A stretch of DNA of 38,433 nt from an uncultured Bacilli bacterium (GCA_934085635.1 CAKOHL010000002.1:1-38433), one strand, 5' to 3'. Counted from the first letter of the stretch, positions 1-37,432 are shown. The notes: generated by a model from the sequence alone, not told the origin. Made by a program: numbers and translations.

Positions 1-2
1 AT

Positions 3-560
3 AATTGGTATGCAAATAATATGACATCATATACAAAATACCTAAGTACAACAGCAGTATATTGTAATGATAGAGAAGTAGGAAGTGGAACATATTCAGC
101 AACAGAATCAGAATTCTACTATGCAGCATATACAAAACTAAAAACAAATAAAACACCAACATATGATTGTACAAATGATAATGATAAATTCACAGTAGAT
201 GCAAGTACTGGTAATGGAAAACTAACATATCCAATAGCCTTAATGACAGCAGATGAAATAGCATATGCAGGAGGAGTATATGATAAATACGCACCAATGT
301 GGTATTATACAAATAGCAAATATAATAGCATAACAGGTACAGAATGGTGGTGGTCTTTGTCGCCTGGCAAATGTGATGGCAACAATACTAACTCGTGGGT
401 TGTGGATGGTTCGGATTTTCCTGGTTATTTGAGTGGCAATTATATCAATAATTCTTATGCTGCCCGTCCAGTTACTTCGCTAAAATCTTGCGTAGTATGG
501 AAAAGTGGAGACGGCTCAGCAAATAATCCTTATGAAATAGAAATGAATGGGGGATGCTAA
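3..560 (+). CDS. Window-truncated 3' part of a secreted protein of unknown function, with a C-terminal 'EWWWSLSP...AARPVTSL' module
   Basis: The frame is open from base 3 (NWYANN precedes the ORF-track Met at 21), so the true start lies upstream of the window. Stop at 558-560. The WWxLSP...ARPV motif resembles a recurrent uncharacterised Firmicute module (possibly DUF6273-like), named from memory only. Confidence 0.5.
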   Translation, partial: NWYANNMTSYTKYLSTTAVYCNDREVGSGTYSATESEFYYAAYTKLKTNKTPTYDCTNDNDKFTVDASTGNGKLTYPIALMTADEIAYAGGVYDKYAPMWYYTNSKYNSITGTEWWWSLSPGKCDGNNTNSWVVDGSDFPGYLSGNYINNSYAARPVTSLKSCVVWKSGDGSANNPYEIEMNGGC

Positions 561-572
561 TCTAAAACAAAC

Positions 573-607
573 AAAAACATTTAGAATTCAAATTTCTAAA
601 TGTTTTT
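573..607. terminator. Bidirectional intrinsic terminator between convergent genes
   Basis: Perfect 14-bp stem AAAAACATTTAGAA (573-586) / TTCTAAATGTTTTT (594-607) with a 7-nt loop. The A/T runs give a U-tract on either strand. It overlaps the permease stop codon. Confidence 0.7.
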
Positions 608-1376
608 CTATTTTATTAATAATACCATAAAGTACAATTGATATAATAAGCAGTATAACTATTCCGCTCATAACTAAGGTCAAATTAAATACCTGAGACC
701 CATAAAGAATTAAATACCCTATACCAGCCTTACTCGTAAGAAACTCGCCCATAATAACACCTATTAAGCAAAGTCCTACACTAATTTTAGAACTATTTAT
801 AATAATCTTATAATTACTAGGCACCACTGCATATCTAAGAATATCCACTTCACTAGCGCCTAAACTCTTCAAAAGTTTAATCCTGTTTTGATTAGTACTC
901 TTAAAGCCTATACTTATAGACTGAATTCCAACAATAACACTAATAAGAACTGCCATTAAAACAATACTCTTTTGATTAGCCCCAACCCAAATAATTATAA
1001 TCGGACCAAGTGCTACCTTAGGTAAACTATTAAAAGCAGTCAAATATGGATCAATTATCTTATCAAAAGTCTTACTCTCATAAATCAGTGTACTAACCAT
1101 TAAACTAATAACGAGCGTTATAAAGAAAGCCAGAAGAGTTTCCTTTAAAGTAACAAATATATGATTTACTAAGTTTCCATTAATAAATAGAGAACTAATA
1201 GACCTAACAATCTTACTGGGAGAACTAGTTATAAAAGAATTAATAATCTCATACTTAGCAAGAAGTTCCCAAACAAGAAGCAAACCAATCAATATAAATA
1301 TCTGAGTAAACCTAATAAAAATCTTATTTCTCTTAATTTTCTTTAAATAATTCTTTTGTTTATCACTTACTTTCAT
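588..1376 (-). CDS. ABC transporter permease, NitT/TauT (nitrate/sulfonate/taurine-type) family
   Basis: 262 aa and polytopic. Carries a BPD-transporter (EAA-loop-like) region, 'KSLGASEVDILRYAVVPS'. Its start overlaps the stop of the ATPase gene by 14 nt. Confidence 0.85.
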   Translation of the reverse strand: MKVSDKQKNYLKKIKRNKIFIRFTQIFILIGLLLVWELLAKYEIINSFITSSPSKIVRSISSLFINGNLVNHIFVTLKETLLAFFITLVISLMVSTLIYESKTFDKIIDPYLTAFNSLPKVALGPIIIIWVGANQKSIVLMAVLISVIVGIQSISIGFKSTNQNRIKLLKSLGASEVDILRYAVVPSNYKIIINSSKISVGLCLIGVIMGEFLTSKAGIGYLILYGSQVFNLTLVMSGIVILLIISIVLYGIINKIEKHLEI

Positions 1377-2112
1377 CTATATCACTCCACAACTTTTCAT
1401 AGTAAAGATTAAACAAAGGACTCTTTCTTTTATCAAGTGGTTCCATATTTTCCACTTCATACTTCATATCATAAATATTCTTTATGTGAGTGGGTCTTTT
1501 GGTCATAACAATTACTCTAGAAGAAATACTAGCAGCCTCTCCAATGTCGTGAGTAACCATGATAGCAGTAATACCTTCTTCCTTCAATATATGATAAACA
1601 TCATTACTAACATTAAGCCTTGTCTGATAATCCAAAGCAGAAAATGGTTCATCAAGAAGTACTAACTTAGGCTTAGTAGCAATTGTCCTAATAAGAGCCA
1701 CCCTTTGCCTCATCCCACCACTCAAACTACTAACTTTCTTATTTTGAAATTCTTCAAGTCCATACTTTTTAAGTAAATATTTAACATAACCTACATTTTC
1801 ACTTGATAATTTCTTTTGAACTTTAAGCCCAAGACAAGCATTATCAAGTACACTAAGCCAAGGAAATAAAGCATCATCTTGAAGCATATAACTAGTAGTA
1901 ATACCACTTCTTAAATTAACAGACCCAGTATAATCCTTATCAAGTCCACCAATTATATTAAGAATAGTACTCTTACCACATCCACTAGTACCTATAATAG
2001 AAATAAACTCATTCTCAAATACATCAAAACTAACATCATGGATTACATCTATTTCTCCATTCAAACTATTATAACTCTTACATAAATGTCTAACTTCTAA
2101 AACATTATTCAT
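1363..2112 (-). CDS. ABC transporter ATP-binding protein (SsuB/TauB-like)
   Basis: Walker A 'GTSGCGKST', signature 'LSGGMRQR', Walker B 'LVLLDEPFSALD' and H-loop 'VTHD'. Overlaps both neighbouring genes. Confidence 0.9.
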   Translation of the reverse strand: MNNVLEVRHLCKSYNSLNGEIDVIHDVSFDVFENEFISIIGTSGCGKSTILNIIGGLDKDYTGSVNLRSGITTSYMLQDDALFPWLSVLDNACLGLKVQKKLSSENVGYVKYLLKKYGLEEFQNKKVSSLSGGMRQRVALIRTIATKPKLVLLDEPFSALDYQTRLNVSNDVYHILKEEGITAIMVTHDIGEAASISSRVIVMTKRPTHIKNIYDMKYEVENMEPLDKRKSPLFNLYYEKLWSDIDESK

Positions 2113-2506
2113 TATAAACTATAGAATTAAAATCTACTCTTTCTTCTAAAACATTATTATATTCCATTAAATCTACCAGATTGTTATAAGCATATTCTTC
2201 TATCTTAGTACTTTCCCACCAAGAGTCAGCACTTTTATATCTATCCACAACTTTAACTAAATCATCAAACTTAGTATCAGCAAATTCACTCTTAATAACC
2301 TCTGCTATTTCTTTAGAACTCTTTTTACTAACAAAATCTAATCCCTTTTGAATAGCATTTCTGAATTTAATAATATCACTCTTATTACTATCTAAATAAC
2401 TCTTCTTTGTATGAAAAACAGTATAAGGTACTTCTCCACTTAAAAGTCCAATACTTGAAAGTACACATCCGTAACCTTCTTTCTCAATTAACAAAGCATT
2501 AGGTTC
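2105..2506 (-). pseudogene. 3' (C-terminal lobe) fragment of the NMT1/THI5-like substrate-binding protein gene of the ABC importer
   Basis: 129 codons with no proper ATG; the ORF track starts it at a TTG that is an internal Leu codon. Its stop overlaps the ATPase start, as in an intact operon. It continues in frame from the 5' fragment at 5679-6276 once the insertion is removed. Confidence 0.85.
2494..2506. repeat. Left copy of the 13-bp direct repeat (att core)
   Basis: AAGCATTAGGTTC, identical to 5679-5691. Confidence 0.9.
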
Positions 2507-2523
2507 TCTTAAAGCAAGAATAA

Positions 2524-2533
2524 GAAGTCACTA
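2524..2533. repeat. Left element-internal inverted repeat (putative recombinase half-site)
   Basis: GAAGTCACTA is the exact reverse complement of 5663-5672. The flanking AAGAA(T/C) also partly matches. Confidence 0.6.
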
Positions 2534-2574
2534 ATATTGATCAAAACAAATTTCCATATAAAAGACTGTTTAAG

Positions 2575-2604
2575 TTGAGAAAAACCCAATTTTTTTGGTA
2601 TAAT
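2575..2604 (+). promoter_or_regulatory. Sigma-A-type promoter for the RhuM gene
   Basis: TTGAGA (2575-2580), an 18-nt spacer, then the extended -10 TGgTATAAT (TATAAT at 2599-2604). Confidence 0.5.
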
Positions 2605-2638
2605 TATATCGACAAGTGCTTAACGAGGAGATGATATA

Positions 2639-3616
2639 TTGAAAAATAATATGCTTATATATGTATCAAAGGATGGCAATGTGAAAGTTGATGTCAATGT
2701 ACAAAATGAAGACATATGGATGAGTCAAGAAGTAATGGCTAATCTCTATGGTACAACTAAAAATAATATTTCAACACATTTAAAAAATATATTTGATGAA
2801 AATGAATTACAAAAAGATTCAGTTGTTAAGAAATTCTTAACAACTGCCAGTGATGGCAAAAATTATAATATTTTGCATTACAATTTAGATGCAATAATTG
2901 CTGTTGGTTACAGAATTAACTCTAAGAAAGCAACTGAATTTAGAATATGGGCAACTAAAGTTTTAAAAGAATATATGATTAAGGGCTTTGCCTTAAATGA
3001 TGAAAGATTAAAAAATAATGGTGAAAATCCATATTTCGAAGAATTACTAGCTAGAATTCGTGACATTAGATCTAGTGAAAAAATATTTTGGAGAAAAGTA
3101 TTAGATATTTATGCTACTAGTATTGATTATAATCCTAAAGACAAATTGTCAATTGACTTTTTTAAAACAGTTCAAAATAAAATGCACTACGCTACGCACG
3201 GAAATACAGCCGCTGAAGTAATATTCAATAGAGTTAATTCAAAAAAAGAAAATATAGGACTAACTAATTTTAAAGGAGAATATCCTACTAAAAATGAAAC
3301 TGAAATAGCTAAAAACTATTTAACGGAAGAAGAATTAAATATATTAAATAGAATAGTATCCGCTTATTTAGACATTGCTGAAATTAATGCTTTAAATAGA
3401 CATCCAATGAAAATGCAAGACTGGATAGATGAATTAGACACCTTTTTAAAAATGACAAGAAAAGACATACTAAAAGGAAGTGGTAAAATATCACATAAAC
3501 AAGCCTTAAAAAAAGCACACGAAGAATATGACAAATATATGCAAACACACTTAACTACTGCTGAAAAGGATTATCTTGATAGTTTAAACAAAAAAATAAG
3601 TGATATCGATATATAA
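2639..3616 (+). CDS. rhuM: RhuM-family virulence-associated protein
   Basis: Colinear match to the RhuM pattern: 'YNLDAIIAVGYRINSKKATEFRIWATKVLKEYMIKGFALNDERLKN', 'IRDIRSSEKIFWRKVLDIYATSIDYNP', 'FFKTVQNKMHYATHGNTAAEVI', 'IAKNYLTEEELNILNRIV'. The start may be TTG 2639 (after GAGGAG) or ATG 2651. Confidence 0.85.
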   Translation: MKNNMLIYVSKDGNVKVDVNVQNEDIWMSQEVMANLYGTTKNNISTHLKNIFDENELQKDSVVKKFLTTASDGKNYNILHYNLDAIIAVGYRINSKKATEFRIWATKVLKEYMIKGFALNDERLKNNGENPYFEELLARIRDIRSSEKIFWRKVLDIYATSIDYNPKDKLSIDFFKTVQNKMHYATHGNTAAEVIFNRVNSKKENIGLTNFKGEYPTKNETEIAKNYLTEEELNILNRIVSAYLDIAEINALNRHPMKMQDWIDELDTFLKMTRKDILKGSGKISHKQALKKAHEEYDKYMQTHLTTAEKDYLDSLNKKISDIDI

Positions 3617-3629
3617 AATTAAATTTAAC

Positions 3630-3660
3630 AGAAACTATATAAAAACTAGTTTCTTTTTTA
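3630..3660 (+). terminator. Intrinsic terminator after the RhuM gene
   Basis: Stem AGAAACTA (3630-3637) / TAGTTTCT (3647-3654) followed by TTTTTT. Confidence 0.6.
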
Positions 3661-3715
3661 TAAAGTATTATTCTATATTATTTCTCATATTTTTAAATAT
3701 GGGGGAGTAATGATT

Positions 3716-3901
3716 ATGAATAACAATTATGTATCAATAAACAAAGCAATAAAAAATAAGAATAAAGAAATGATCTTAGAAGTAGCCTTAACGTTAAACA
3801 AAGAACTATTTAATGAAAATAAAATTTCATACAAAATGTTCAAATATACCGAAAATAATATTTTAAAAGAATTGAAAAGTTGTAATGTAAATAGTACTTA
3901 A
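3716..3901 (+). CDS. Small basic hypothetical protein; candidate recombination directionality factor or regulator
   Basis: 61 codons from ATG 3716, 8 nt after GGGGGAG. ATG 3710 is too close to the RBS. Sits directly upstream of the recombinase gene. No recognisable motif. Confidence 0.4.
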   Translation: MNNNYVSINKAIKNKNKEMILEVALTLNKELFNENKISYKMFKYTENNILKELKSCNVNST

Positions 3902-3935
3902 TGAATTTCTAAAATTATATTATGAGAGGGGAAAA

Positions 3936-5642
3936 ATGGATTTATATAATGTTCGAAAACAATTAAATATGGGAATGCCACTTACAAGTATAAAACTCAG
4001 GGTAACAGATTATGCAAGAGTATCAACAGATCATTTAAAACAAAAGAGATCTCTTCAAAATCAAGTGGAACATTTTGAAAAATATATAAAAGATAATCCA
4101 AACTGGACTTATGTTAATGGTTATGTGGATGATGGAATAACCGGTACAAGTGATATAAAAAGAGATAATTTTATGAAAATGATTGAAGATGCTAGAAATG
4201 GTAAATTTGATTTAATAGTTACCAAAGAAATATCTAGATTTTCAAGAAACACTCTTGATAGTATTAAGTATACTAGAGAACTTTTGTCTTATGGAGTAGC
4301 TGTACTATTCGTAAATGATAATATCAACACAGCTATGCCTGATTCTGAACTCAGACTAACTATAATGGCATCTATGGCTCAAGATGAAATAAGACGCTTA
4401 TCAGAACGTGTTAAATTTGGTATGAATCGTGCGATAGAACGTGGAGAAATACTTGGTAATAACTTACTATATGGTTACAAAAAGGATAAGGATAGTAAAG
4501 TATTAAACATCGTAGAAACAGAGGCAAAAATTGTTAGAAGAATTTATGAACTTTACGCGGTTGAAGAACTCTCACTTTCTAAAATTACTAAAACTTTAAA
4601 TAATGAAGGACTAAAAACTTGTCAAGGTAAAAATTGGTGTATATCTACAATATCTCGAATGATAGAAAATCCTAAATATAAGGGATATTATTGTGCTAAA
4701 AAATCTGAAATACTAGATTATATGACAAAAAAAATAAAATACTTTAAAAAAGATGATTGGATTACCTACGAAGATACAACAAGAATTCCACCTATAATTG
4801 ATGAAAATTTATGGGAAAGAGCTAATACTCGATTATTACAAAGAAAAAAATCGTTTAAAGGGCGAAAAGAAAATAAAAACATTTATAAAAATAGATACAT
4901 ATATAGTGCTAAAATATTTTGTGCTGAGCACAATACGGTTTTCTACAGGAGAGAATTCAGAAAAACCAAAAAAGATATTACTTGGGTATGTTCAGAGTAT
5001 TTAAAAAGTGGTAAAACCATTTGTGATTCACCTAATATAAGAGAGTCAGAACTAGATGCTATTTTTAAAGATATAATTTCTAAATTACAATTAGATTTTA
5101 ATGAAATAATCGATACCCTTATAAACTCTTATAAACATTTAGAAATAGTTACTAGTATAGATGAAGAAATTTTATTACGTGAAAAAGAAATAAATAATAT
5201 TCATATCAAAAAAGATAAATTATTAGAACTTAGTATACAAAATAATTTATCTAATGAAGAATTTTATGAAAGAAATAATTCGTTTAATGAAAAAATTAAA
5301 GTACTTGAAGATGAAATAAGTAAACTAAAAAATCAAAAAATCAATTTCAAAAACGTAGCAGACGAAATTGAAGAATTAACTAAAATATTAAAACAAAAAG
5401 TAAGTTCCAAATCAACTATAAATAAATTAATTAGCTACTTAGTAGAACGTATTATAGTATCCAAAATAGATAATAACAAAAATAATATGGAATTAAAAAT
5501 ATTTTTATCTTATAAAGGAAATGCAGAAACAAATTTGAAACCTATATTAAAAGATAATTATGAATTTAAAAGAGGTTATGACACAAATGGAACTAAAAGG
5601 TATAATGTAAATTATCAAGTGAATTGTTATTTCTGTCTTTAA
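3936..5642 (+). CDS. Large serine recombinase (resolvase/invertase catalytic domain, recombinase domain, zinc ribbon and coiled coil)
   Basis: Contains 'YARVSTDHLKQKRSLQNQ' (catalytic Ser), 'DDGITGT', 'LIVTKEISRFSRNTLD', 'MAQDEIRRLSERVKFG', a Cys cluster CAEH...WVCSEY...CDSP, and a long K/E/N-rich coiled coil. RBS GAGAGGGG. Confidence 0.9.
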   Translation: MDLYNVRKQLNMGMPLTSIKLRVTDYARVSTDHLKQKRSLQNQVEHFEKYIKDNPNWTYVNGYVDDGITGTSDIKRDNFMKMIEDARNGKFDLIVTKEISRFSRNTLDSIKYTRELLSYGVAVLFVNDNINTAMPDSELRLTIMASMAQDEIRRLSERVKFGMNRAIERGEILGNNLLYGYKKDKDSKVLNIVETEAKIVRRIYELYAVEELSLSKITKTLNNEGLKTCQGKNWCISTISRMIENPKYKGYYCAKKSEILDYMTKKIKYFKKDDWITYEDTTRIPPIIDENLWERANTRLLQRKKSFKGRKENKNIYKNRYIYSAKIFCAEHNTVFYRREFRKTKKDITWVCSEYLKSGKTICDSPNIRESELDAIFKDIISKLQLDFNEIIDTLINSYKHLEIVTSIDEEILLREKEINNIHIKKDKLLELSIQNNLSNEEFYERNNSFNEKIKVLEDEISKLKNQKINFKNVADEIEELTKILKQKVSSKSTINKLISYLVERIIVSKIDNNKNNMELKIFLSYKGNAETNLKPILKDNYEFKRGYDTNGTKRYNVNYQVNCYFCL

Positions 5643-5662
5643 AAGACATTTATTTTATCACC

Positions 5663-5672
5663 TAGTGACTTC
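5663..5672. repeat. Right element-internal inverted repeat (putative recombinase half-site)
   Basis: TAGTGACTTC is the reverse complement of 2524-2533. Confidence 0.6.
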
Positions 5673-5678
5673 GTTCTT

Positions 5679-5691
5679 AAGCATTAGGTTC
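5679..5691. repeat. Right copy of the 13-bp direct repeat (att core)
   Basis: AAGCATTAGGTTC, identical to 2494-2506. Confidence 0.9.
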
Positions 5692-6276
5692 AAAAAGATT
5701 AACAAAGTCACCTTGCTTACCAATATAAGCACCACTTAAACTAGCAAAATCAACACTAGTATCAACATTAACATCTTTAATATCTACACCATTTTTATGT
5801 AGTGCATAAAGAAACACCATTGCGGGCATCCCACCTTTTCTCCCAGCAAGCACCTTTTTACCATATAAAGACTTTATATCAAAATTATCTTTTAACTTAC
5901 AATCACCAACAAGAAATTGACCATCTCTCTTAGTTAAACTTGAAAAATTAACTAAATAATCCTTTGCACTATTGTTCTTAACATAAATAGTAGCCTCAAG
6001 TCCGGAAAGACCTATCTCAGTATCACCACTTAAAACACTACTTGCGACCTTATCTGCACCACTAGTTAAAATAACTTCAACATCAAGTCCCTCTTCTTCA
6101 AAATACCCATTATGCAAACTTACATAAAATGGAGCATAAAACACACTATGTGTAACCTCTGCAACTCTAATCTTCTTTAAGTCACTATCTGTATCCTTGA
6201 AACTATAATAAACTCCAACAAACCCCAATATAGCAAACAAAAAAATACCTAATATGTAATAATAAACTTTCTTCAT
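5679..6276 (-). pseudogene. 5' (membrane anchor plus N-terminal lobe) fragment of the NMT1/THI5-like substrate-binding protein gene
   Basis: N-terminal TM anchor, then 'IRVAEVTHSVFYAPFYVSLHNGYFEEEGLDVEV', typical of NitT/TauT-type binding proteins. It ends '...FVNLFEPNA' at a TAA (5677-5679) two of whose three bases come from the inserted DNA. Confidence 0.85.
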
Positions 6277-6403
6277 ATTACCTCACTTTCTGTATTAGTA
6301 TATGGGTAAAATAATTAATGTGTTACATAATAATGTAAAACTAACTATTCAAAATATTGATATTTACAATAAAAATAATATATAATTAATATGGAGGCTG
6401 GTA

Positions 6404-6970
6404 ATGAAATATTTCTGTTATCATTTAGCAAGACCTTTTATAAAGATATTTATGAAAGTATTCTATAGAATTAAAGTAGAAAATGAAAACGTCCTTAAAA
6501 ACGAAGCTTTTCTCCTAGCGGGTAATCACACATCAGTACTAGACCCATTACTAATAATATCATCTACGAAAAAACACATAAACTTCTTTGCAAAAAAAGA
6601 AATATTTAAGCCTATAATAAAATATCTATTTAAAAATGCAGGAGTAATTAGTGTAGACAGAAAAAGCAAAAATAAAGAAGCAATGGAAGAAGGAAAGAAG
6701 AGACTTTTAAATAATGAATTAGTACTAATATTTCCAGAAGGAACAACAAATAAAACTCGTGAGTTATTACCTTTTAAATATGGAGCAGTAAGTTTAGCAA
6801 GCAAAACTAATTCAAAAATATTACCATTTGTAATAAAAGGAAAATATAAATTATTTAGAAAAAGTATTAAACTAATATATTTAAATCCATATTACTTAGA
6901 ATCAGATGACTTAACAAAAGAAAATGAAAAATTAAAAAAAATAATTGAAAAGGAGTTAAACAATGAATAA
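6404..6970 (+). CDS. 1-acyl-sn-glycerol-3-phosphate acyltransferase family protein (PlsC-like), copy 1
   Basis: HX4D motif 'NHTSVLD' and 'FPEGT'; 188 aa. Confidence 0.8.
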   Translation: MKYFCYHLARPFIKIFMKVFYRIKVENENVLKNEAFLLAGNHTSVLDPLLIISSTKKHINFFAKKEIFKPIIKYLFKNAGVISVDRKSKNKEAMEEGKKRLLNNELVLIFPEGTTNKTRELLPFKYGAVSLASKTNSKILPFVIKGKYKLFRKSIKLIYLNPYYLESDDLTKENEKLKKIIEKELNNE

Positions 6971-7532
6971 TTTTTGGTATAAATTTTTAAGACCAATATT
7001 AAGTCCAATATATAAATTTTATTATAATCCAAAAATAGAAGGAAAACAAAACATACCTGAAGAAGGACCTATAATAATCGCAGGTAATCATAAACATATA
7101 ATGGATCAGTGTAATATAATTATATCAACCAAAAGAGTTATTACCTATATGGCTAAAAAAGAATACTTTGATAATCCACTAACTAAAGTATTCTTTAAAA
7201 TGGTAAAATGTATACCTGTTGATAGAAGTAAAAAAGATGAAAATGCAAAATCAAAAGCATTAGATGTTTTAAAAAATGGTGGTGCAATAGGAATATTTCC
7301 AGAAGGAACTAGAAACAAAACAAAAGAAAAACTTCTTGCGTTCAAATATGGTACTGTATCAATGGCAAAAAAAACGAACTCTTTAATAGTACCTTTCGGT
7401 ATAAGCGGAGACTACAAATTTAGAAGTAAAAACCTAAAAATTAAAATAGGAAAACCAATTGATGTATCTAAATTAACTATAGAAGAAGCAAATCAAAAAC
7501 TTTATGATGAAATATCAAATCTAATTGATTAA
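6963..7532 (+). CDS. 1-acyl-sn-glycerol-3-phosphate acyltransferase family protein (PlsC-like), copy 2
   Basis: HX4D 'NHKHIMD' and 'FPEGTRN'. Its start overlaps the stop of copy 1 by 8 nt. Confidence 0.8.
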   Translation: MNNFWYKFLRPILSPIYKFYYNPKIEGKQNIPEEGPIIIAGNHKHIMDQCNIIISTKRVITYMAKKEYFDNPLTKVFFKMVKCIPVDRSKKDENAKSKALDVLKNGGAIGIFPEGTRNKTKEKLLAFKYGTVSMAKKTNSLIVPFGISGDYKFRSKNLKIKIGKPIDVSKLTIEEANQKLYDEISNLID

Positions 7533-7685
7533 ATAAAGAAAGGTAGATTAAAATAAATCTATCACATTTATATATAAAAAAACATGAAGATCCCGATTTA
7601 TTCTTCTTGCAAAAACCTCATACTTTGTTGTACAATGGATATACAAGGTAGAAAACCTAATACGCTAGTTCAGGAGGTAATCAAA

Positions 7686-9077
7686 ATGGTATTTTCAGGC
7701 ATAACTTTTCTATATTACTTTTTACCAATAATGCTATTAGTTTATTTTATATGTCCTAAAAAATATAGAAACATAATATTACTAATAGGCAGTCTAATCT
7801 TTTATTTTTATGGAGAAACAAAATATTTCTTACTACTAGTTTTTTCTTCAATATTTAACTATCTTGTAGGTAAAAAAATAGAAAGCAGCAAACATAAAAA
7901 AATATTTTTAGCACTAGGTTTAATTGTTAATTTTGGTTTGCTATTTTACTTTAAATATTTTGACTTCTTTATAGAGAATATAAATGCTTTAATAGGTACA
8001 CAAATAAGTCTTTTAAACATAGTAATACCTATAGGAATAAGTTTCTTTACATTTAAAAATGCAAGTTACTTAATAGATATATATAATTGTAAAATAAAAG
8101 CATCAAATAGTCTTATTAATTATAGCTTATACTTATGCATATTCCAAACTATCGTGCAAGGTCCAATAGTAAGATACAAAGATGTAGAAAAAGAACTTAG
8201 TAGCAGAAAAGAATCATTTAGTCTATTCTCCAAAGGAGTAAGTAGATTTATACTTGGATTATCTAAAAAAGTATTAATAGCAAATGTTTTAGGAGAGTTA
8301 ACAACTAGTTTAGCTGGTATGGCTAGCAAAAGTATAATTTCATACTGGTTAAAAGCAAGTACTGACATACTAAGATTATACATAGACTTCTCTGGCTACA
8401 GTGATATGGCAATAGGTTTAGGCCTTATGTTTGGATTCAAGTACCTAGAAAACTTTGACTATCCATTTATGTCAAAAACAATGACAGAATTCTGGCGCAG
8501 GTGGCACATAAGCTTATCAAGTTGGTTCAAAGACTACATATATATTCCACTAGGAGGTAGTAAAGTATCTCCAAAAAGAAGAATAATCAACATACTAATA
8601 GTGTGGTTTTTAACAGGATTATGGCACGGATCAAGCTGGAATTTCATATTATGGGGACTATACTTTGGAATAATACTAATAATAGAAAAGAAATTCTTCT
8701 ATAAATATCTAAACGAACACAAAGTAATAGGTAGACTAATAACTGACATATTAGTAATGATAGGATTCATATTCTTCTATCAAACAACAATGCCAGAAAT
8801 AACAATATTCTTTAAATCAATGTTTGGATTTAAAGGCTTACCACTATTAACAAACGAAACAATATACTACATAAAAAACTATCTTATAGTGTTCATCCTT
8901 GGAGTAATAATAAGCACACCACTACTTAAAAACATAATAGCAAAATTAAAAGAAAACAAAAAAGTAAATATAATTATAAACGTACTAGAAGTAATAATGT
9001 ACATTGCATTACTAATAATTAGCACAGCTTTTATAATAGATGAATCTTTTAGTCCATTCTTATACTTTAGATTCTAG
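7686..9077 (+). CDS. MBOAT-family membrane O-acyltransferase (AlgI/DltB/PatA-like)
   Basis: Contains 'EFWRRWHISLSSWFKDYIYIPLGGS' and 'WFLTGLWHGSSWNFILWG' (conserved His region); polytopic. Start set at ATG 7686 after AGGAGG. The ORF-track extension from 7584 lacks an RBS and is not part of the family N-terminus. Confidence 0.85.
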   Translation: MVFSGITFLYYFLPIMLLVYFICPKKYRNIILLIGSLIFYFYGETKYFLLLVFSSIFNYLVGKKIESSKHKKIFLALGLIVNFGLLFYFKYFDFFIENINALIGTQISLLNIVIPIGISFFTFKNASYLIDIYNCKIKASNSLINYSLYLCIFQTIVQGPIVRYKDVEKELSSRKESFSLFSKGVSRFILGLSKKVLIANVLGELTTSLAGMASKSIISYWLKASTDILRLYIDFSGYSDMAIGLGLMFGFKYLENFDYPFMSKTMTEFWRRWHISLSSWFKDYIYIPLGGSKVSPKRRIINILIVWFLTGLWHGSSWNFILWGLYFGIILIIEKKFFYKYLNEHKVIGRLITDILVMIGFIFFYQTTMPEITIFFKSMFGFKGLPLLTNETIYYIKNYLIVFILGVIISTPLLKNIIAKLKENKKVNIIINVLEVIMYIALLIISTAFIIDESFSPFLYFRF

Positions 9078-9090
9078 GAAAGGAGAAAAA

Positions 9091-10182
9091 ATGAAAGACA
9101 AAATAATAACAATAACATTCGTAAGTTTTCTATCTATATTCCTAATAATAAACATATTTACAAAAGACAAAGAAGTATCTAGAGAAGAAAGAAGAACCCT
9201 TGCCTCATCTCCAAAACTAGAAATAAAAGAAATGATAAAAGGTGATAATTCATATTTTAATGAACTAAATACATACTTTCTAGATCAGTTTTCCTATAGA
9301 AGTACATTTAGAAAAATAAAAGGAACCATTGCCACTAGACTTTTACAAAAAAAAGAAAACAATGGAGTATTTGAAACTGAAGGACACTTAGTAAAAGTAG
9401 ACTCTAAAATAAACTATTCTTCACTAGATAACATAACATCAAAAATAAATTATATAAATGAAAAATATCTAGATGAAACAAACAAAAAATACTTTGCCTT
9501 CATTCCAGATAAAAACTTTTACATAAAGAACAAAACATTGCCTAAACTAGACTATAATGAACTAGAAACAAAACTAAAAAGCGAATTAAACTATTTAAAA
9601 TGGATAGACTTAAAAGAGGAATTGTCTCTAAGTAACTACTATAGTACAGATATACATTGGAAACAAGAAACTTTAAGCAAAGTAGTTAACAGACTAGAAA
9701 AGGAAATGAACTTAAAAATCACAAAAATGCCTGAAGAAAAAAGTTCATACTACCCATTCTATGGTGCACTTTACAGCAGCACAGCGTCAAACGTTGAAAA
9801 AGATACGATATATTACTTAAAAAATGATATAATAAATAATGTATTAGTGTATAACTATGAAAAGAATAAATATGAAAAAGTATATAACGAAGAAAATCTA
9901 AAACACATAGATAGTTATGATATATATTTATCAGGAGCAACAGCTTTACTAACAATAGAAAACAAAGCAGCACCAATTCAAAAGGAACTTATAATGTTCA
10001 GAGATTCATTCTCTAGTAGCCTAGTTCCATTATTAATAGAAAACTATAGTAGAATAACTCTAATTGATTTAAGATACATAAGTAGTAAATACTTAGAAAA
10101 AGTTGATATTAATTTCAAAAATGCTGATGTACTTTTCATATATAGTATGCCAATAATTAATAATAGTTTTTCACTAAAATAA
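9091..10182 (+). CDS. DHHW-family protein (AlgJ/AlgX-like SGNH-fold partner of MBOAT)
   Basis: N-terminal TM anchor, 'STDIHW' (a DHHW-type motif) and 'FRDSFSSSL'. Start at ATG 9091 after GGAAAGGAG. Sits immediately downstream of the MBOAT gene. Confidence 0.65.
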   Translation: MKDKIITITFVSFLSIFLIINIFTKDKEVSREERRTLASSPKLEIKEMIKGDNSYFNELNTYFLDQFSYRSTFRKIKGTIATRLLQKKENNGVFETEGHLVKVDSKINYSSLDNITSKINYINEKYLDETNKKYFAFIPDKNFYIKNKTLPKLDYNELETKLKSELNYLKWIDLKEELSLSNYYSTDIHWKQETLSKVVNRLEKEMNLKITKMPEEKSSYYPFYGALYSSTASNVEKDTIYYLKNDIINNVLVYNYEKNKYEKVYNEENLKHIDSYDIYLSGATALLTIENKAAPIQKELIMFRDSFSSSLVPLLIENYSRITLIDLRYISSKYLEKVDINFKNADVLFIYSMPIINNSFSLK

Positions 10183-10193
10183 AGGAGGACAAA

Positions 10194-10667
10194 ATGAAAA
10201 AAATAACAAAAATATTACTTTTAACAGCACTATCATTTATGCTAATTGGATGCACTACAAAAGGAAAAAACATAGATGGAAACCTTAGCAATATAATGAA
10301 TGAGATATACAAAGGAATGCCAGAAGGAGAATTACCAGAACTAGAACAGACTAAAGTAACAAAAAAAAATGAAGAATATTACTTAGGAAAAATAACTTTC
10401 TCATATAAAGAAGCTTTAGCAAGCGAGCCGTTAATGTCTTCAATCGCCCATTCAGTAGTGCTCGTAAGATTAAACAGTAGTAAAGATGCAGAAAAAGCTA
10501 AAAAAGAAATAAAAGAAAAAGTTGATCCTGCAAAATGGGTATGTGTAAACGTAGAAGATAAAAACGTATTAGTTGAAAGCAAAGGAGATTTAGTACTTCT
10601 AGTAATGGATAATGAATACTCACAAAAAATAATGGATAAATTCTTATCACTAGGAGAATCCAAGTAA
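10194..10667 (+). CDS. Lipoprotein, DUF4358-like
   Basis: Lipobox 'LIGC'. The pattern 'VVLVRLNSSKDAEKAKKEIKEKV...W...V' matches my recollection of DUF4358, which commonly follows DHHW/MBOAT genes. Confidence 0.55.
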   Translation: MKKITKILLLTALSFMLIGCTTKGKNIDGNLSNIMNEIYKGMPEGELPELEQTKVTKKNEEYYLGKITFSYKEALASEPLMSSIAHSVVLVRLNSSKDAEKAKKEIKEKVDPAKWVCVNVEDKNVLVESKGDLVLLVMDNEYSQKIMDKFLSLGESK

Positions 10668-10677
10668 AATATCTTGT

Positions 10678-10710
10678 AAAAAGCAATTTAGTTAGTTGCT
10701 TTTTTTATTT
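10678..10710 (+). terminator. Intrinsic terminator
   Basis: Stem AAAAAGCAA (10678-10686) / TTGCTTTTT (10696-10704) followed by a T-run. Confidence 0.6.
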
Positions 10711-10744
10711 ACTTAGACTATACTATTATTAAGGGTAAGTAGTT

Positions 10745-11728
10745 ATGAAAAAAAGAAGAAGAAAGAAAAGAAAACTTATAGTTAAGAATTTAATAAAGTT
10801 AATAGTATTATTCTTAATACTAGTATTTTTGATTGTCCTAACAATAAGTAAAATATATAGAAGTAGAAGTTTTAAAGTAAACTTTAACTCTGATGGTGGA
10901 AGTGCTGTTAAAAAAGAAGTAGTAAAATATGGAGAAAAAGCATATACTCCACAAGATCCAAATAAAGAAGGATACGAATTTAATGGTTGGTACATTAACG
11001 ATAAATTATATGACTTTGATTCAAAAGTAAAAAAAGATATAACCTTAACAGCTAAATGGGATGAAATTCAAAAAGATAATCCAGTCAATCCAGACGAAAA
11101 TAATAACACAAATCCGGCCCCACCAAACGAAAATAATAATACAAATACTGAAGAAAAAGACCCATATCCATATGACCATTTAAGTACAGATGATGCTAAA
11201 AGAATATTTAGTGAGAAAAAAGCGCTTGTAGTTTCTGACTCAATGGGAGAAGGACTAAGTGCATATAAAGTTTTAAACGAAGAAAATGTTATCTGGCATC
11301 GTGGTAGAAGAGTAGATAATATGGACATAGATATAGATAAAATATTAGAATTTAATCCATCATACATCTTTATGAGTTATGGAGCAAACGACATAAAATG
11401 GTGGGGAGGAAATGCAGAAAAATTTATAAATGCTTACAAAACACAAATAGAAAACCTACAAAGTAAACTACCAAATACCAAAATAATAATCAACTCAGTT
11501 TTACCAGTAGGAGAAAAAGCTATAGAAAAAGATGCATCATTTACTCATCAAGAAGAATTTAACACAGCATTAAAAGCCTTAGCGAAAGAAATGAACCTAG
11601 ACTTTATAGAAAATGGATTCATAGTATACACTGATGAAAAACCATTCTCATCAGATGGAGTACATCCAAAAAGTTTCTTCTTCTTTGCTTGGGGTAAACA
11701 TATGGCAAGTTATTTAGAAAAAAACTAA
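10745..11728 (+). CDS. Membrane-anchored protein with a Listeria-Bacteroides (InlB B-type) repeat and a C-terminal SGNH/GDSL hydrolase domain
   Basis: N-terminal K/R-rich segment plus a TM. Repeat 'FNSDGGSAVKKEVVKYGEKAYTPQDPNKEGYEFNGWY'. An Asn/Pro linker. SGNH block I 'VVSDSMGEG', then 'SYGANDI' and 'SDGVHP'. Confidence 0.75.
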   Translation: MKKRRRKKRKLIVKNLIKLIVLFLILVFLIVLTISKIYRSRSFKVNFNSDGGSAVKKEVVKYGEKAYTPQDPNKEGYEFNGWYINDKLYDFDSKVKKDITLTAKWDEIQKDNPVNPDENNNTNPAPPNENNNTNTEEKDPYPYDHLSTDDAKRIFSEKKALVVSDSMGEGLSAYKVLNEENVIWHRGRRVDNMDIDIDKILEFNPSYIFMSYGANDIKWWGGNAEKFINAYKTQIENLQSKLPNTKIIINSVLPVGEKAIEKDASFTHQEEFNTALKALAKEMNLDFIENGFIVYTDEKPFSSDGVHPKSFFFFAWGKHMASYLEKN

Positions 11729-11752
11729 TGCACACTTAAAAGTGCATTTTTT
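11727..11752 (+). terminator. Intrinsic terminator
   Basis: Stem AATGCAC (11727-11733) / GTGCATT (11742-11748) followed by TTTT. Confidence 0.5.
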
Positions 11753-11848
11753 AATTTGTAAAAAAATAAAGAAAAACATAAACTTATTGCCAAAAACTAC
11801 CTATTTAATGATATAATATATAATGAGATAATATAGTAGGAGGCATTA

Positions 11849-14113
11849 ATGAAAAAACACATACTAATAATTTTAACAATAATAATTAATATTTTGACAA
11901 TAACTAAGCTTAATGCCTTAGCGGGCTATACAACTGGCACATATGTCAAAGTAAGAAGTGAAGCAAGTGTTAATGGTGCAGAACTAGCAGAAATAGCAAA
12001 TAGAAACACAGTCCTTAATTTAATTAGTGATGAACTTTATAATGTAGGAGACACAAATTGCTCAGTAGGTTGGTATAAAATAAATTATAATGATAAAGAA
12101 GGATATATATGTGGAAAATATGTATCAATCGGAGAATTACCTAGCATAGATGATGGGCCAGGATTCAATGAAGAAACATATGAAGCAAGAATAAATGGAG
12201 TAAACATATATGTAAGAAAATCAGCAAGTTCTTCTTCACAAGTGTTAGATACACTTTTGCCAGGAACGAACTTAAAAATAGTAGGAAATAAAGTAAGTGG
12301 AACAGGATGTACAGAAGGGTACTATAAAGTAAACTATTACAAAAATCAAACTGGTTATGTGTGCTCAAAATTTGTAGTAACAAAGGGTGAAATAACAAGT
12401 AAAGACGAATCGTATGAACAAACACTAAAATCTCTTGGATTCCCTGATTCATACATTCCATATCTAGTAAAACTACACCAGGACCACCCAACTTGGACAT
12501 TCAAACCAATACTAACGAATCTTTACTGGTCGGAAGTATTAGATGGATTCAAAGGCAAAACTGCACTTCTAAACTACAAAATAGAAGCATATCTAGAAAA
12601 CTTAAATGACAACATCGACGGGGCAGGTTGGTATCCAGCAAAATCCTCAGTCGTAGCATTCTACTTAGACCCAAGAAACTTTCTAACAGAAAAATTTGTA
12701 TTTATGTTTGAAAGTTTAAGATATGATTACACAAGTTCAACTAAAGACTCACTAAATATGGAAAATGAAATAACAAAGAAATACTTATCAACAATGTCAT
12801 CAGTTTTATCAAGTTCATTTTTAAACACTGATGAATACAAAAAATACTATGTAGAAGCTGGATTTAATTTTGACATTAATCCAGTACATCTGGTGACACG
12901 TTCAAAAGGAGAAGGTGCAGCAAATGAAAACTACGTAGCAGTATCCGGGAATAACCCTGATTTGTACTGTAATTCAGTAACTGGGGAATGCTTCAATATA
13001 AATAATTTTTACAATTTCTACAACATAGGTGCATATAAACAAAATGGATTATCTAACCCAGTAAAAAACGGCCTTCTATATGCATGCGGACCTGCATGTG
13101 GATACGGAACTTCATATGGTAGACCTTGGGACACAAGAGAAAAAGCAATAAAAGGTGGGGCTGAATTCATATCCAACAGATACATAGGAAAAGGACAGTT
13201 TACTAGATACTTACAAAGATATAACGTTAACCCGTTCGGACAAAATGCACTATACACAAACGCATATCAAACTAACGTAATCGCAGCTTGTTCAGACTCA
13301 GCAGATGCATACACTTCATATAAAGAAATGAATTTATTAGAAGAACCATACTTATTTGAAATACCAGTATTTTTAAATATGCCAGACGTAGTAAGTCTTC
13401 CAAATATAGCAAGCACAGTAAACACTATAGAAAGCATAACAATAAATGGTAAAAAAATAACATCATTTGATAAAGACATATTAGAATTCACAGTTTATGT
13501 AAACGTAAACGACAAAGAATACGACATCGCAACAGTTCTTACTGATAATACAAGTAAAATTGAAGGTACTGGAAAAATATCTTTTGAAGAACAATCAAAA
13601 ACTCAAGAATTAAAAGTAACAGCAGAAAACGGTGATGTAAGAATATACAAAATGACTATGGTAAAAGTAAATGACACCACAACTGTTGAAGAAATAATAA
13701 GCAACTTATCAGTAAAAGTAACTGGTAACATAATGCACGGAATAAGTCCTGGAACTCTTGGAAGCACTCTTGTAACAAGCATAAACAAATTTAGCCCAGG
13801 CACAACAGTTGTTTTAAACGAAATGGATGGAAATGCAGCTTCAATATCTGGAATCTTAAAAACAGGACAAACAATCAAACTAACAACACCATCTGGAGAA
13901 ACAAAATCATTTGTGGTATCTGTAATAGGCGACACAAGTGGAGATGGAGAAGTAACAATCTTAGACTTATTAAGAGTACAAAAACACCTTCTAGGTTCAT
14001 CAAAACTAACAGATTATAACTTAGTTGCAGGAGACACAAATGCTGATGGAGAAGTAACAATACTAGACCTACTAAGAATTCAAAAATACATACTAAAAAC
14101 AATAAATCTATAG
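11849..14113 (+). CDS. Secreted peptidoglycan hydrolase: 2x SH3b, GH73-like N-acetylglucosaminidase, cadherin-like beta-sandwich and a C-terminal type-I dockerin
   Basis: - Signal peptide.
- Two 'GYxxxxxVxVRSxxS...GWYKVNY..GYVC' SH3b repeats.
- GH73-like blocks 'FYNIGAY', 'RPWDTREKAIKGGAEFISNRYIGKGQFTRYLQRYNVNP', 'NAYQTNV'.
- Cadherin-like 'ITINGKKITSFDKDILEFTVYV...VTAENGDVRIYKMTM'.
- Duplicated Ca-binding dockerin repeat 'GDTSGDGEVTILDLLRVQKHLLG' / 'GDTNADGEVTILDLLRIQKYIL' (nt ~13922-14110). Confidence 0.8.
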   Translation: MKKHILIILTIIINILTITKLNALAGYTTGTYVKVRSEASVNGAELAEIANRNTVLNLISDELYNVGDTNCSVGWYKINYNDKEGYICGKYVSIGELPSIDDGPGFNEETYEARINGVNIYVRKSASSSSQVLDTLLPGTNLKIVGNKVSGTGCTEGYYKVNYYKNQTGYVCSKFVVTKGEITSKDESYEQTLKSLGFPDSYIPYLVKLHQDHPTWTFKPILTNLYWSEVLDGFKGKTALLNYKIEAYLENLNDNIDGAGWYPAKSSVVAFYLDPRNFLTEKFVFMFESLRYDYTSSTKDSLNMENEITKKYLSTMSSVLSSSFLNTDEYKKYYVEAGFNFDINPVHLVTRSKGEGAANENYVAVSGNNPDLYCNSVTGECFNINNFYNFYNIGAYKQNGLSNPVKNGLLYACGPACGYGTSYGRPWDTREKAIKGGAEFISNRYIGKGQFTRYLQRYNVNPFGQNALYTNAYQTNVIAACSDSADAYTSYKEMNLLEEPYLFEIPVFLNMPDVVSLPNIASTVNTIESITINGKKITSFDKDILEFTVYVNVNDKEYDIATVLTDNTSKIEGTGKISFEEQSKTQELKVTAENGDVRIYKMTMVKVNDTTTVEEIISNLSVKVTGNIMHGISPGTLGSTLVTSINKFSPGTTVVLNEMDGNAASISGILKTGQTIKLTTPSGETKSFVVSVIGDTSGDGEVTILDLLRVQKHLLGSSKLTDYNLVAGDTNADGEVTILDLLRIQKYILKTINL

Positions 14114-31624: not shown

Positions 31625-31930
31625 ATGGCAAAAATAGAAAATAAGAAAAAAGAAGTTTCTAAAGGAAAAGAAATGAATGATAAAGATATATTAAATGATA
31701 TATTAGAATACGAAAAAAATATGAGTAATAATTATAGCATAGCATTAAATGAAATGAGCAATAAAGTTCTTTATAAAAAAGTATTCACACTATTTAAAGA
31801 AAGTAAAGGACTTGCTAGAGACATATTTGATACTATGTTTGTAAATGGATGGTACAGTCTAGAAACAGCAGAAGAAAATAAAATTACAAAAGCTTACGAT
31901 GAAGCTAAAAAAGAATATGGTGAACTTTAA
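31625..31930 (+). CDS. Coat F domain spore coat protein
   Basis: 'DKDILNDILEYEKNMSNNYSIALNEMSNKVLYKKVFTLFKESKGLARDIFDTMFVNGWY' fits the Coat F pattern. RBS AGGAGG. Confidence 0.65.
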   Translation: MAKIENKKKEVSKGKEMNDKDILNDILEYEKNMSNNYSIALNEMSNKVLYKKVFTLFKESKGLARDIFDTMFVNGWYSLETAEENKITKAYDEAKKEYGEL

Positions 31931-33230: not shown

Positions 33231-33306
33231 TGGCGCCCGTTGCAGGACTCGAACCTGCGACCTAACGGTTAACAGCCGTGCGCTCTACCGACTGAGCTAA
33301 ACGGGC
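33231..33306 (-). tRNA. tRNA-Asn (anticodon GTT), CCA encoded
   Basis: The reverse complement is GCCCGTTTAGCTCAGTCGGTAGAGCGCACGGCTGTTAACCGTTAGGTCGCAGGTTCGAGTCCTGCAACGGGCGCCA. It has a 7-bp acceptor stem, D arm GCTC/GAGC, anticodon loop CTGTTAA and T arm GCAGG-TTCGAGT-CCTGC; 76 nt. Confidence 0.9.
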
Positions 33307-36856: not shown

Positions 36857-36880
36857 AAAAACTCCATAACGGAGTTATAA
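36854..36880. terminator. Short bidirectional hairpin between convergent genes
   Basis: Stem AACTCC (36860-36865) / GGAGTT (36871-36876), flanked by an A-run and a T-run. Overlaps the cotJC stop. Confidence 0.4.
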
Positions 36881-37432
36881 ACCTTTTTTCTTATATTCAT
36901 CATGTAAACTTTTAAATCTATTATAATGAACTACTTCTCTTTGTCTTAAAAAACTTAGAGGTGCTAATAAGTCAGGATCACTAGTAAGATCCATAAGGTT
37001 TTCATAAGTAGCTCTTGCTTTTTCTTCAGCAGCCATATCTTCAGCAAGATCAACTATAGCATCTCCGCTTGAAGCAATATAAGCTGCAGTAAATGGCATT
37101 CCATTCGCACCACTTGGATAAATACCTTTCTTATGAGTAGTATAATAATCAGATAAACCAGCATTCTTTATCTCATCTATAGTTACTCCATTCATAAGTT
37201 GATGAATCATAGTTGCAATCATCTCACAATGCCCGATTTCTTCACATCCAATATCCGATAATAATGCACGTCCTTTTTCATCAGGCATAGTAAATCTTTG
37301 ACATAAGTATCTAAGTGATGCTCCGAGCTCGCCATTGGCGCCACCAAGTTGATCCGATAAAAGTTTAGCCATCTTTAAATCTTTTCTTTTAATATTAATT
37401 GGATACTCAAGCATTTTCTCATATTTAAACAT
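36875..37432 (-). CDS. cotJC: Spore coat protein CotJC (manganese-catalase family)
   Basis: Contains 'LGGANGELGASLRYLCQRF', 'EEIGHCEMIATMIHQL' and 'AAEEKARATYENL'. Its start overlaps the upstream stop (TAATG). Confidence 0.9.
   Translation of the reverse strand: MFKYEKMLEYPINIKRKDLKMAKLLSDQLGGANGELGASLRYLCQRFTMPDEKGRALLSDIGCEEIGHCEMIATMIHQLMNGVTIDEIKNAGLSDYYTTHKKGIYPSGANGMPFTAAYIASSGDAIVDLAEDMAAEEKARATYENLMDLTSDPDLLAPLSFLRQREVVHYNRFKSLHDEYKKKGL

Follow-up and report, generated by a model that had tools for sequence, protein, structure and literature searches.

How should we read a short insert that splits the binding-protein gene of an importer and whose precise removal would make the gene whole again: as a switch kept by the host, as a stranded scar, or as a mobile element for which the gene is a place to land? 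The question is raised by 3,185 bp (2507-5691) of a 38,433-nucleotide stretch from an uncultured Bacilli bacterium (GCA_934085635.1 CAKOHL010000002.1:1-38433; this whole stretch is hereafter the window), where an insert that encodes a large serine recombinase (LSR) interrupts the operon of an ATP-binding cassette (ABC) importer. An earlier note, made from the sequence of the window alone, described a minimal site-specific element that acts as an on/off insertion. Here, by comparison with public contigs and genomes, we find an insert with the structure of an LSR element, a natural empty site in the same species, a target conserved across species, horizontal spread, and cargo of defence type. 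The data support a real mobile element, site-specific and LSR-moved, whose precise excision would restore an intact operon. We further consider it likely, though well short of certain, that the insert is a functional minimal integrative defence cassette driven by its LSR and that the gene disruption is incidental.

The split gene and its natural empty site

The genes of the interrupted operon are listed here together with their identity to L001, a contig from an ENA gut metagenome assembly that encodes the uninterrupted protein P0001 and has the same neighbours as the window.

588-1376, minus strand: permease gene of the interrupted ABC importer operon, intact (PF00528, 2e-17; 99% identical to its L001 counterpart)
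1363-2112, minus strand: ATPase gene of the operon, intact (PF00005, 2.2e-28; 97% identical to its L001 counterpart)
2105-2494, minus strand: 3' fragment of the binding-protein gene, 129 aa, codons 200-328 (99% identity to the C-terminal portion of the uninterrupted L001 gene)
5677-6276, minus strand: 5' fragment of the binding-protein gene, 199 aa, codons 1-199 (NMT1/THI5, PF09084, 3.7e-11; 100% identity to the N-terminal portion of the uninterrupted L001 gene)

The interrupted gene encodes an ABC substrate-binding protein of the NMT1/SsuA type, and those of its ATPase and permease come next in the operon. The 5' fragment reads ...FVNLFEPNA* and ends at a TAA stop that straddles the insert junction, and the stop of the 129-aa fragment shares 8 nt with the ATPase open reading frame (ORF). 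Exact copies of a 13-bp direct repeat, AAGCATTAGGTTC, are found at 2494-2506 and 5679-5691, with a third copy carrying one mismatch at 14292; the chance expectation is 0.02 matches, and three matches were reached in 0/100 shuffles. In-silico removal of 2507-5691 yields a 328-aa ORF, reading ...VNLFEPNALLIEKEGYG..., which corresponds to the full length of P0001 (reported 100% identity and 100% coverage, with one V/L difference visible) and is colinear with 14 intact homologues (53-74% identity), with neither gap nor duplication at the junction. The description given in the earlier note is borne out on each of these points: a first, NMT1/THI5-like lobe ending in a TAA at the junction, a second lobe whose stop overlaps the ATPase gene, an exact repeat at both ends, and an excision of 3,185 bp that restores 328 codons in frame, with nothing lost or duplicated in the alignment to intact homologues that the note had proposed and with a natural protein as counterpart of the joined product.

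The note had also proposed a search for an unoccupied site, and the uninterrupted gene of L001 provides one. Positions 1-8598 of this contig align to 14275-5679 of the window at 95.9%, while 8586-11085 align to 2506-1 at 92.3%, such that the two blocks overlap by exactly the 13-bp core. The alignment breaks exactly at this core, and L001 thus shows us the site of a conspecific strain in its natural, empty state.

The site is polymorphic within the species, with ~68 occupied versus at least 103 intact contigs among the cluster members listed; among these members, contig counts are 58+3+3+1 for the 199-aa fragment, 56+9+3 for the 129-aa fragment and ~56 for the LSR. The occupied allele is seen in L002, from a Hadza gut metagenome, which is 98.8% identical to the window over 14.3 kb with the insert included (one mismatch in the right 13-bp copy), and in L091, another independent contig. 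Between samples, occupied copies have their flanks in common and 98-100% identity, and the three ORFs and both attachment (att) arms are undamaged in every occupied copy examined. This recurrence bears on whether the insertion could be an assembly or binning artefact, in which unrelated contigs had been joined into a chimera that looks like an insertion. The one point in favour of an artefact is that the window is an assembled sequence. Since the same junctions recur on dozens of independent public contigs from different studies, L002 and L091 among them, and display an att architecture common to 40+ related loci, we exclude an artefact, the residual probability being negligible.

Beside the operon, window positions 7584-14113 hold a cell-surface cluster that is conserved in empty and occupied strains alike, consisting of an MBOAT acyltransferase, two PlsC-type acyltransferases, a GDSL lipase-like protein with Flg_new repeats, a 754-aa SH3_3/dockerin protein, and then a cadherin-like protein. 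An Rfam scan for a riboswitch or other RNA, whether as a clue to the importer substrate or within the element, returned only a tRNA at 33234-33306.

Attachment sites and the putative point of exchange

Four features mark the ends of the insert.

2494-2506, plus strand: left repeat copy (attL core), putative crossover TC at 2505-2506 (repeat search, family comparison)
2507-2533, plus strand: left 27-nt att arm TCTTAAAGCAAGAATAAGAAGTCACTA, conserved at the left junction of ~35 related loci
5663-5689, plus strand: right 27-nt att arm TAGTGACTTCGTTCTTAAGCATTAGGT, its length and distal motif GTGACTTC as in the right arm of relatives
5679-5691, plus strand: right repeat copy (attR core), putative crossover TC at 5690-5691 (repeat search, family comparison)

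The inverted arms match at 18/27 positions, with distal motifs GAAGTCACTA/TAGTGACTTC, and are symmetric around TC. Conservation across ~35 related loci covers both the left end, TC/TCTTAGTGCAAGAATAAGAAGTCRC, and the right end, GGTGACTTCATTCTCTTACACTAAGT/TC (slashes mark the junctions), and in these relatives attL and attR have only GTTC or CTC in common. Because the junctions of the relatives share so little and the arms are symmetric around TC, we place the exchange at this dinucleotide, which is the GA of a GAA Glu codon in gene orientation. The 13-bp repeat of the window would then comprise the crossover plus 10-11 bp over which the right arm chances to equal the host sequence. Family comparison thus narrows the crossover region from the 13-bp repeat to a single putative TC at one edge. 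The layout is consistent with a standard serine-integrase architecture, and the gin element has the same geometry, with a 9-bp consensus and the crossover at its end (PMC5595907).

Genes of the insert

Between the arms we observe three genes, namely RhuM, a small ORF of 61/63 aa (s63), and the LSR, with the following order of genes and signals.

2575-2604, plus strand: sigma-70-type promoter-like site with extended -10 (TTGAGA-18-TATAAT, TG) upstream of RhuM, 11/12 consensus positions, a consensus match only
2639-3616, plus strand: RhuM-family cargo gene with an N-terminal Bro-N-like region and a RhuM domain (PF13310, 7.7e-108; PADLOC PDC-S05)
3630-3659, plus strand: terminator-like hairpin AGAAACTA...TAGTTTCT and then a T-run, after RhuM (read from the sequence)
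3660-3709, plus strand: almost invariant block AAGTATTATT...TCTCATAnnTTTTAAAT with a ribosome-binding site, upstream of the small ORF (alignment of 9 elements)
3710-3901, plus strand: small conserved ORF, 63 aa from 3710 or 61 aa from the ATG at 3716 (synteny with the LSR)
3936-5642, plus strand: LSR, 568 aa (PF00239, 6.4e-33; PF07508, 1.9e-24; PF13408, 7.9e-09; phrog_95 integrase, 8e-114)

Its domains place the 568-aa protein firmly in the LSR family, as it combines a catalytic domain (PF00239, residues 26-171) with recombinase and zinc-ribbon domains and lies within the att architecture described above. The YARVST motif is intact, and YARVSTD aligns with YCRVSTD of the best solved relative, the catalytic domain of a C. 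difficile "putative conjugative transposon recombinase" (PDB 3g13; 137 bits, 6.2e-39, residues 20-174), with about half of the aligned residues identical by eye. The protein also matches SPbeta SprA across residues 72-515, and a heptad-rich stretch at ~390-470 suggests a coiled-coil in the zinc-ribbon region. We would expect such an enzyme to be active in recombination. No relative above 41% identity was found among deposited phages and plasmids; the best "phage" match, MT837325 (7.1 kb), was set aside as an unrelated high-GC contig without terminal repeats. In Pfam and PHROG searches, no phage structural, lysis, replication or conjugation domains were detected among the insert proteins and no relaxase/Mob domain in the window element, in agreement with the earlier note, which had counted three genes and no phage structural, replication or conjugation genes.

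The RhuM protein matches PADLOC PDC-S05 (PDLC04843) over its full length (1.3e-148, residues 2-318). A toxin-domain role in defence loci has been put forward for RhuM (PMC3710099), and the window protein is a candidate anti-phage defence gene product.

In most related loci, the small ORF immediately precedes the LSR, with any cargo and with the LSR at either end of the element. It has 224 homologues, and all of those with genomic context examined belong to the family of the window element, the core of the protein being nearly invariant. AlphaFold2 predicts a two-helix hairpin (50 homologues; predicted local distance difference test score of 91). No family in Pfam, PHROGs, NCBIfam or PADLOC corresponds to it, and a PDB fold search with the model gave nothing at E<0.4, returning generic helical hairpins only. 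Known recombination directionality factors have no common fold and are recognised by their contact with the junction between the DNA-binding domain DBD2 and the coiled-coil of the LSR (PMC12286644). For this reason, the generic hairpin neither supports nor refutes a directionality-factor role, and the assignment remains one by synteny. We regard the 61-aa protein as a candidate directionality factor or a candidate partner of the LSR, and as the most likely directionality factor for excision.

The block at 3660-3709 aligns with those of L004, L011, L020, L025, L030, L035, L041 and L093, and the terminator hairpin upstream of it is likewise conserved in relatives, just before the small ORF. The block contains a CATA-type motif, and no sigma-70-like site was found on its plus strand; possibly it serves the s63-LSR operon as a regulated promoter or as an operator. 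Two further candidates in this region were rejected: partial consensus matches to a sigma-E/K promoter are indistinguishable from AT-rich background, and the 10-mer AAGTATTATT common to the upstream regions of s63 and cotJB is within chance (32/100 shuffles gave at least 2 matches).

An element family that spreads between species

Relatives of the LSR at 80-84% identity form more than 100 clusters. In a genome scan with one genome per GTDB species, 43 species representatives carry LSRs 51-84% identical to that of the window, all of them metagenome-assembled genomes of uncultured gut "Bacilli/Mollicutes/Tenericutes" from humans, mice, rabbits, goats and deer. In virtually all 43, the same binding-protein gene is found beside the LSR as an N-terminal fragment, a C-terminal fragment or both, and where both flanks are in the locus, the split falls at the same residue (~196-199) in binding proteins that are ~40-60% identical to that of the window. 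The split lies inside V192-N-L-F-E-P197-x-A199, which is invariant in intact homologues, and it is this conserved target sequence that allows the cassette to land in many diverged species.

LSR pairs with 95-99% identity are found beside ATPases that are 56-61% identical and binding-protein fragments that are 41-57% identical, and the divergence of the LSRs shows almost no correlation with that of their hosts (Spearman 0.14). Since near-identical LSRs flank diverged host genes, the family moves horizontally between species, re-finding the same site.

The family is widespread among low-GC gut Bacilli without cultured members, and its elements range from 3.2 kb, the smallest seen and that of the window, to ~10 kb. 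The window element consists of the left module of its relatives (arm and RhuM, 86% nucleotide identity) and a right module of terminator, small ORF, LSR and arm (83% nucleotide identity to larger relatives), with the middle absent (L004, L018). Two further ORFs are common to most larger relatives: one of 173-178 aa, and one of 131 aa whose NikA-like match stays below threshold (23 bits, cut-off 27). The three-gene core of RhuM, small ORF and LSR recurs colinearly in L030, L035, L041 and L093. A literature search found no paper that describes this LSR cassette family or its target; the family is apparently new to the literature, whereas site-specific integrative cassettes with swappable defence cargo are well established.

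Cargo of the relatives

The variable genes between the arms of relatives match defence models, as in the following loci.

L017: QatA/B/C and an HD-domain protein
L020: PDC-M43A/B
L021: M78-peptidase-HTH protein beside a DUF4411 protein (toxin-antitoxin-like pair)
L022: OLD/Gabija/AriA-like ATPase with a TOPRIM domain

RhuM is the cargo in many related loci, and other relatives hold kinase or reductase genes.

Several loci show additional layers. In L003-L007, a group II intron (RVT_1 and GIIM reverse transcriptase, in places several ORFs) occupies ~3338-6510 in the cargo region of 9-kb elements. In L033 (3448-3500 and 4600-4640), an attP-like junction (right arm, TC, left arm) lies between an LSR element and a 1.15-kb cassette with family-type arms, one 167-aa ORF and no recombinase, an arrangement that amounts to tandem accretion and resembles composite/pseudo-SCC elements. 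Beyond a short binding-protein fragment (codons 146-196) that follows the LSR, islands are found in L009/L012 (10003-17710), L010 (10003-17710) and L008 (10344-17710); these encode a KAP NTPase, a Macro domain, a Ser/Thr kinase, an SMC-like ATPase and DUF4268, or a rolling-circle Rep and DnaB, and show that the site accumulates further mobile and defence DNA. Finally, a 40-kb sequence filed as viral, L095 (IMGVR_UViG_3300006217_003178), has a related attL junction at 2944-2965 beside a C-terminal binding-protein fragment and an ATPase gene, and represents either an element beside a prophage or host DNA misfiled as viral.

A working cassette or a stranded remnant

In the mechanism that we favour, the LSR would recombine a 56-bp imperfectly palindromic attP, made up of two 27-nt arms around TC (GA in gene orientation), with an attB in the VNLFEP(N/T)A-coding segment, and inactivation of the importer would be a by-product of integration. 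The payload would be anti-phage defence, provided by RhuM/PDC-S05 alone in the window and by other systems in relatives, and the 61-aa hairpin protein would gate excision as a directionality factor. The cassette is probably still functional. On this account, the importer has been knocked out in about a third of the sampled strains of the species by a mobile cassette rather than by a dedicated regulatory device, and the locus shows a route by which anti-phage genes move among uncultured, genome-reduced gut Bacilli. With both att sites, dozens of natural variants and a cross-species target, such a compact LSR system would also be material for integrase and directionality-factor tools.

A number of points weigh against this account. 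All loci were found via the LSR, so the universality of the target was not probed from the target side. The element is minimal, without the 173-aa and NikA-like 131-aa genes and without a recognisable transfer function. The defence role of RhuM is a candidate annotation, and that of the 61-aa protein is drawn from synteny, the fold being a generic hairpin without a significant structural match. Lastly, a 34-nt degenerate pattern for the attP (excised-circle) junction gave 0 matches in JGI metagenome and IMG/VR contigs, and a 22-nt pattern gave 4 matches, all of which are attL junctions of integrated relatives, in a search of low sensitivity that covers exact matches in assembled contigs only. 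The circular attP junction, one of the two by which the earlier note would have traced excision in reads, thus did not appear in these assembled contigs.

The same observations could be taken to mean that a mobilisable cassette of 6-10 kb has been reduced to the insert by deletion, with loss of its transfer and maintenance genes, and that what is left is a scar, no longer mobile, which inactivates the importer in one sub-lineage of the species. Consistent with a scar, no remnants of the 173-aa and 131-aa backbone genes were found in the window element, the excised form is missing from the assembled JGI/IMG/VR contigs, and the 98-100% identity of copies across samples, with the same flanks, fits clonal inheritance. 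Against a scar, every copy examined has undamaged att arms on both sides and all three ORFs, and the catalytic motif of the LSR is intact. Moreover, because the three-gene core is colinear in other species (L030, L035, L041, L093), it is a viable configuration and not a one-off deletion. We consider a stranded remnant unlikely and retain the functional cassette as the better account of the insert.

Further insertions in the same operon

In ~20/43 species representatives, at least one additional LSR insertion is found in the same ABC operon, at five other positions.

Binding-protein codon ~70: L053:12181-13516
Binding-protein codon ~95: L025:12066-17844, L026
Binding-protein codon ~147: L032:11901-14659, L036:7188-11472 and others
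ATPase codon ~139: L039:849-4134, L043:823-6731, L048, L052:815-8982 and others
Permease codon ~206: L009:1-1349, L012, L016, L019, L028:726-3230, L050

Each extra insertion has its own serine recombinase, and the site-specific groups are mutually 21-30% identical, except that the codon-95 group reaches 41% identity to the window LSR. Shorter N-terminal fragments of the binding protein also occur in the window's own species, as P0376 (154 aa) and P0380 (151 aa) of the 199-aa fragment cluster, on contigs of up to 102 kb; their lengths suggest that a second insertion site (codon ~147-154) is occupied in some strains.

The convergence of several unrelated recombinases on one operon raises the question of whether conserved genes that a host can dispense with are neutral safe harbours or whether inactivation itself is selected. 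In the latter case, the operon could be a selected multi-site "landing pad", in which at least five unrelated LSR lineages have their own sites and park defence cargo, and RhuM-s63-LSR would be a reversible switch gated by its directionality factor. Loss and regain of a surface binding protein would then be coupled to the carriage of immunity genes (for example, if the protein were a phage receptor or the importer costly), and the trigger would possibly come from the conserved non-sigma-70 block upstream of s63-LSR. The sampling behind any enrichment of the operon as a target is biased, every locus having been found with one LSR. We regard a selected landing pad as very doubtful.

Switch and sporulation

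The on/off insertion of the earlier note corresponds to a regulated switch, in which the host keeps a reversible interruption until a signal (sporulation, phage attack or nutrient state) leads the LSR and the 61-aa factor to excise the insert and the importer is expressed, on the model of skin, SPbeta and gin in sporulation genes and of phage A118 in Listeria comK. Precise in-frame restoration is indeed possible, with both gene halves, the ATPase and the permease undamaged, although undamaged halves are expected equally after a recent insertion. The host also has spore-coat genes, as the note had stated (Coat_F at 31625-31930, CotJC at 36875-37432 and CotJB at 37432-37956), and a CATA-type motif lies in the nearly invariant block that precedes the small ORF and LSR and does not resemble a sigma-70 promoter. 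In addition, related uncultured Bacilli orders are predicted to contain both spore-forming species and species that do not form spores (PMC10868615), and non-phage LSR elements can be developmental intervening elements, as gin illustrates (PMC5595907).

Nevertheless, the target is neither a sporulation nor a mother-cell gene, the 10-mer common to the cotJ upstream region is within chance, and nothing ties the element to the spore-coat genes. The family spreads horizontally rather than being a fixed developmental element, occupancy is polymorphic with an empty allele at least as common as the occupied one, and the attP junction is missing from assembled contigs. Furthermore, one excision would not restore importer function in the ~20/43 related species whose operon carries additional LSR insertions. 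A regulated switch thus seems quite improbable to us.

What remains of the earlier interpretation is the minimal site-specific element itself, seen in an LSR insert whose site occurs empty in nature and whose att arms form an imperfect inverted repeat. Its on/off action finds no support, given polymorphic occupancy, horizontal spread, extra insertions in the operon and the missing excised junction. Nor is the proposed kinship with sporulation intervening elements supported, given a transporter binding protein as target, in place of a mother-cell gene, and the spread of the element between species, and a resemblance to phage regulatory switches is not supported by an insert of three genes without capsid, tail, terminase, lysis or replication domains.

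A different LSR is found in a spore-coat gene of another conspecific contig. In L014:13421-15342 (ERZ15610569 NODE_198), a 483-aa LSR truncates cotJC, a member of the Mn-catalase family, to 137 aa, compared with 185 aa in the window; this LSR borders a prophage-like element that encodes an S24 repressor, DnaB and HNH. The arrangement is the classical one of a sporulation gene interrupted by an LSR prophage, and it is absent from the window.

Comparison with known systems

Taken as a functional minimal integrative defence cassette, the insert would have its closest functional analogues in cassettes of the staphylococcal cassette chromosome (SCC) type, in the gin element, and in LSR transposons of the Tn4451/Tn5397 type. 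The window element displays neither a sporulation-gene target nor prophage nature, neither Ccr orthology nor the rlmH site, and no Mob module.

Like SCC and SCCmec, which are moved by CcrAB or CcrC, the family consists of small to medium non-phage, non-conjugative cassettes that are moved by an LSR into one conserved chromosomal site and hold variable cargo. Composite or tandem arrays and recombinase-less cassettes with att flanks are a further likeness (here, L033). The window LSR is not, however, a Ccr orthologue, scoring 126 bits with NCBIfam CcrB, 120 with CcrC and 61 with CcrA against cut-offs of 900, 900 and 700. Whereas SCC inserts at the 3' end of rlmH, the window element lies inside an ABC binding-protein ORF and destroys the gene, and in place of resistance cargo, its family holds defence genes in uncultured gut Bacilli.

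As with gin in gerE of Bacillus cereus (GirC/GirX), and with skin and SPbeta, a serine recombinase element splits a protein-coding gene. The window element shares with gin a short junction repeat with the crossover dinucleotide at one end, an attP that is an imperfect inverted repeat, and a non-phage nature with defence cargo, which is restriction-modification in gin (PMC5595907). A small accessory factor sets direction in gin, and the candidate 61-aa protein would be its counterpart here. In contrast to gin, which has 31 genes, three recombinases, a mother-cell sporulation regulator as target and a demonstrated sporulation-specific excision (PMC5595907), the window element has 3 genes, a transporter target and horizontal spread.

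With Tn4451/Tn4453 and Tn5397, the mobilisable or conjugative clostridial transposons of TnpX and TndX, the window element has in common a size of a few kb and an LSR as its sole recombinase. These transposons have a 2-bp GA crossover at their ends, and TnpX and TndX are less site-restricted in their targets. Unlike them, the window element lacks a Mob/relaxase gene and its family uses one strict target site across 40+ species; the similarity of its LSR to TnpX is weak (2mhc, 33 bits). The weak match of larger relatives to a NikA-like relaxosome accessory protein is a point of likeness to Tn4451-type mobilisable elements.

More broadly, the pairing of a conserved integration module with swappable anti-phage systems at a fixed hotspot is shared with P4-like satellites, Tn7-like transposons, integron cassettes and defence islands. 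What sets this family apart from such carriers is that its module consists of an LSR and a 61-aa partner, that its smallest member is 3.2 kb, and that it uses the coding sequence of an ABC importer gene as its hotspot.

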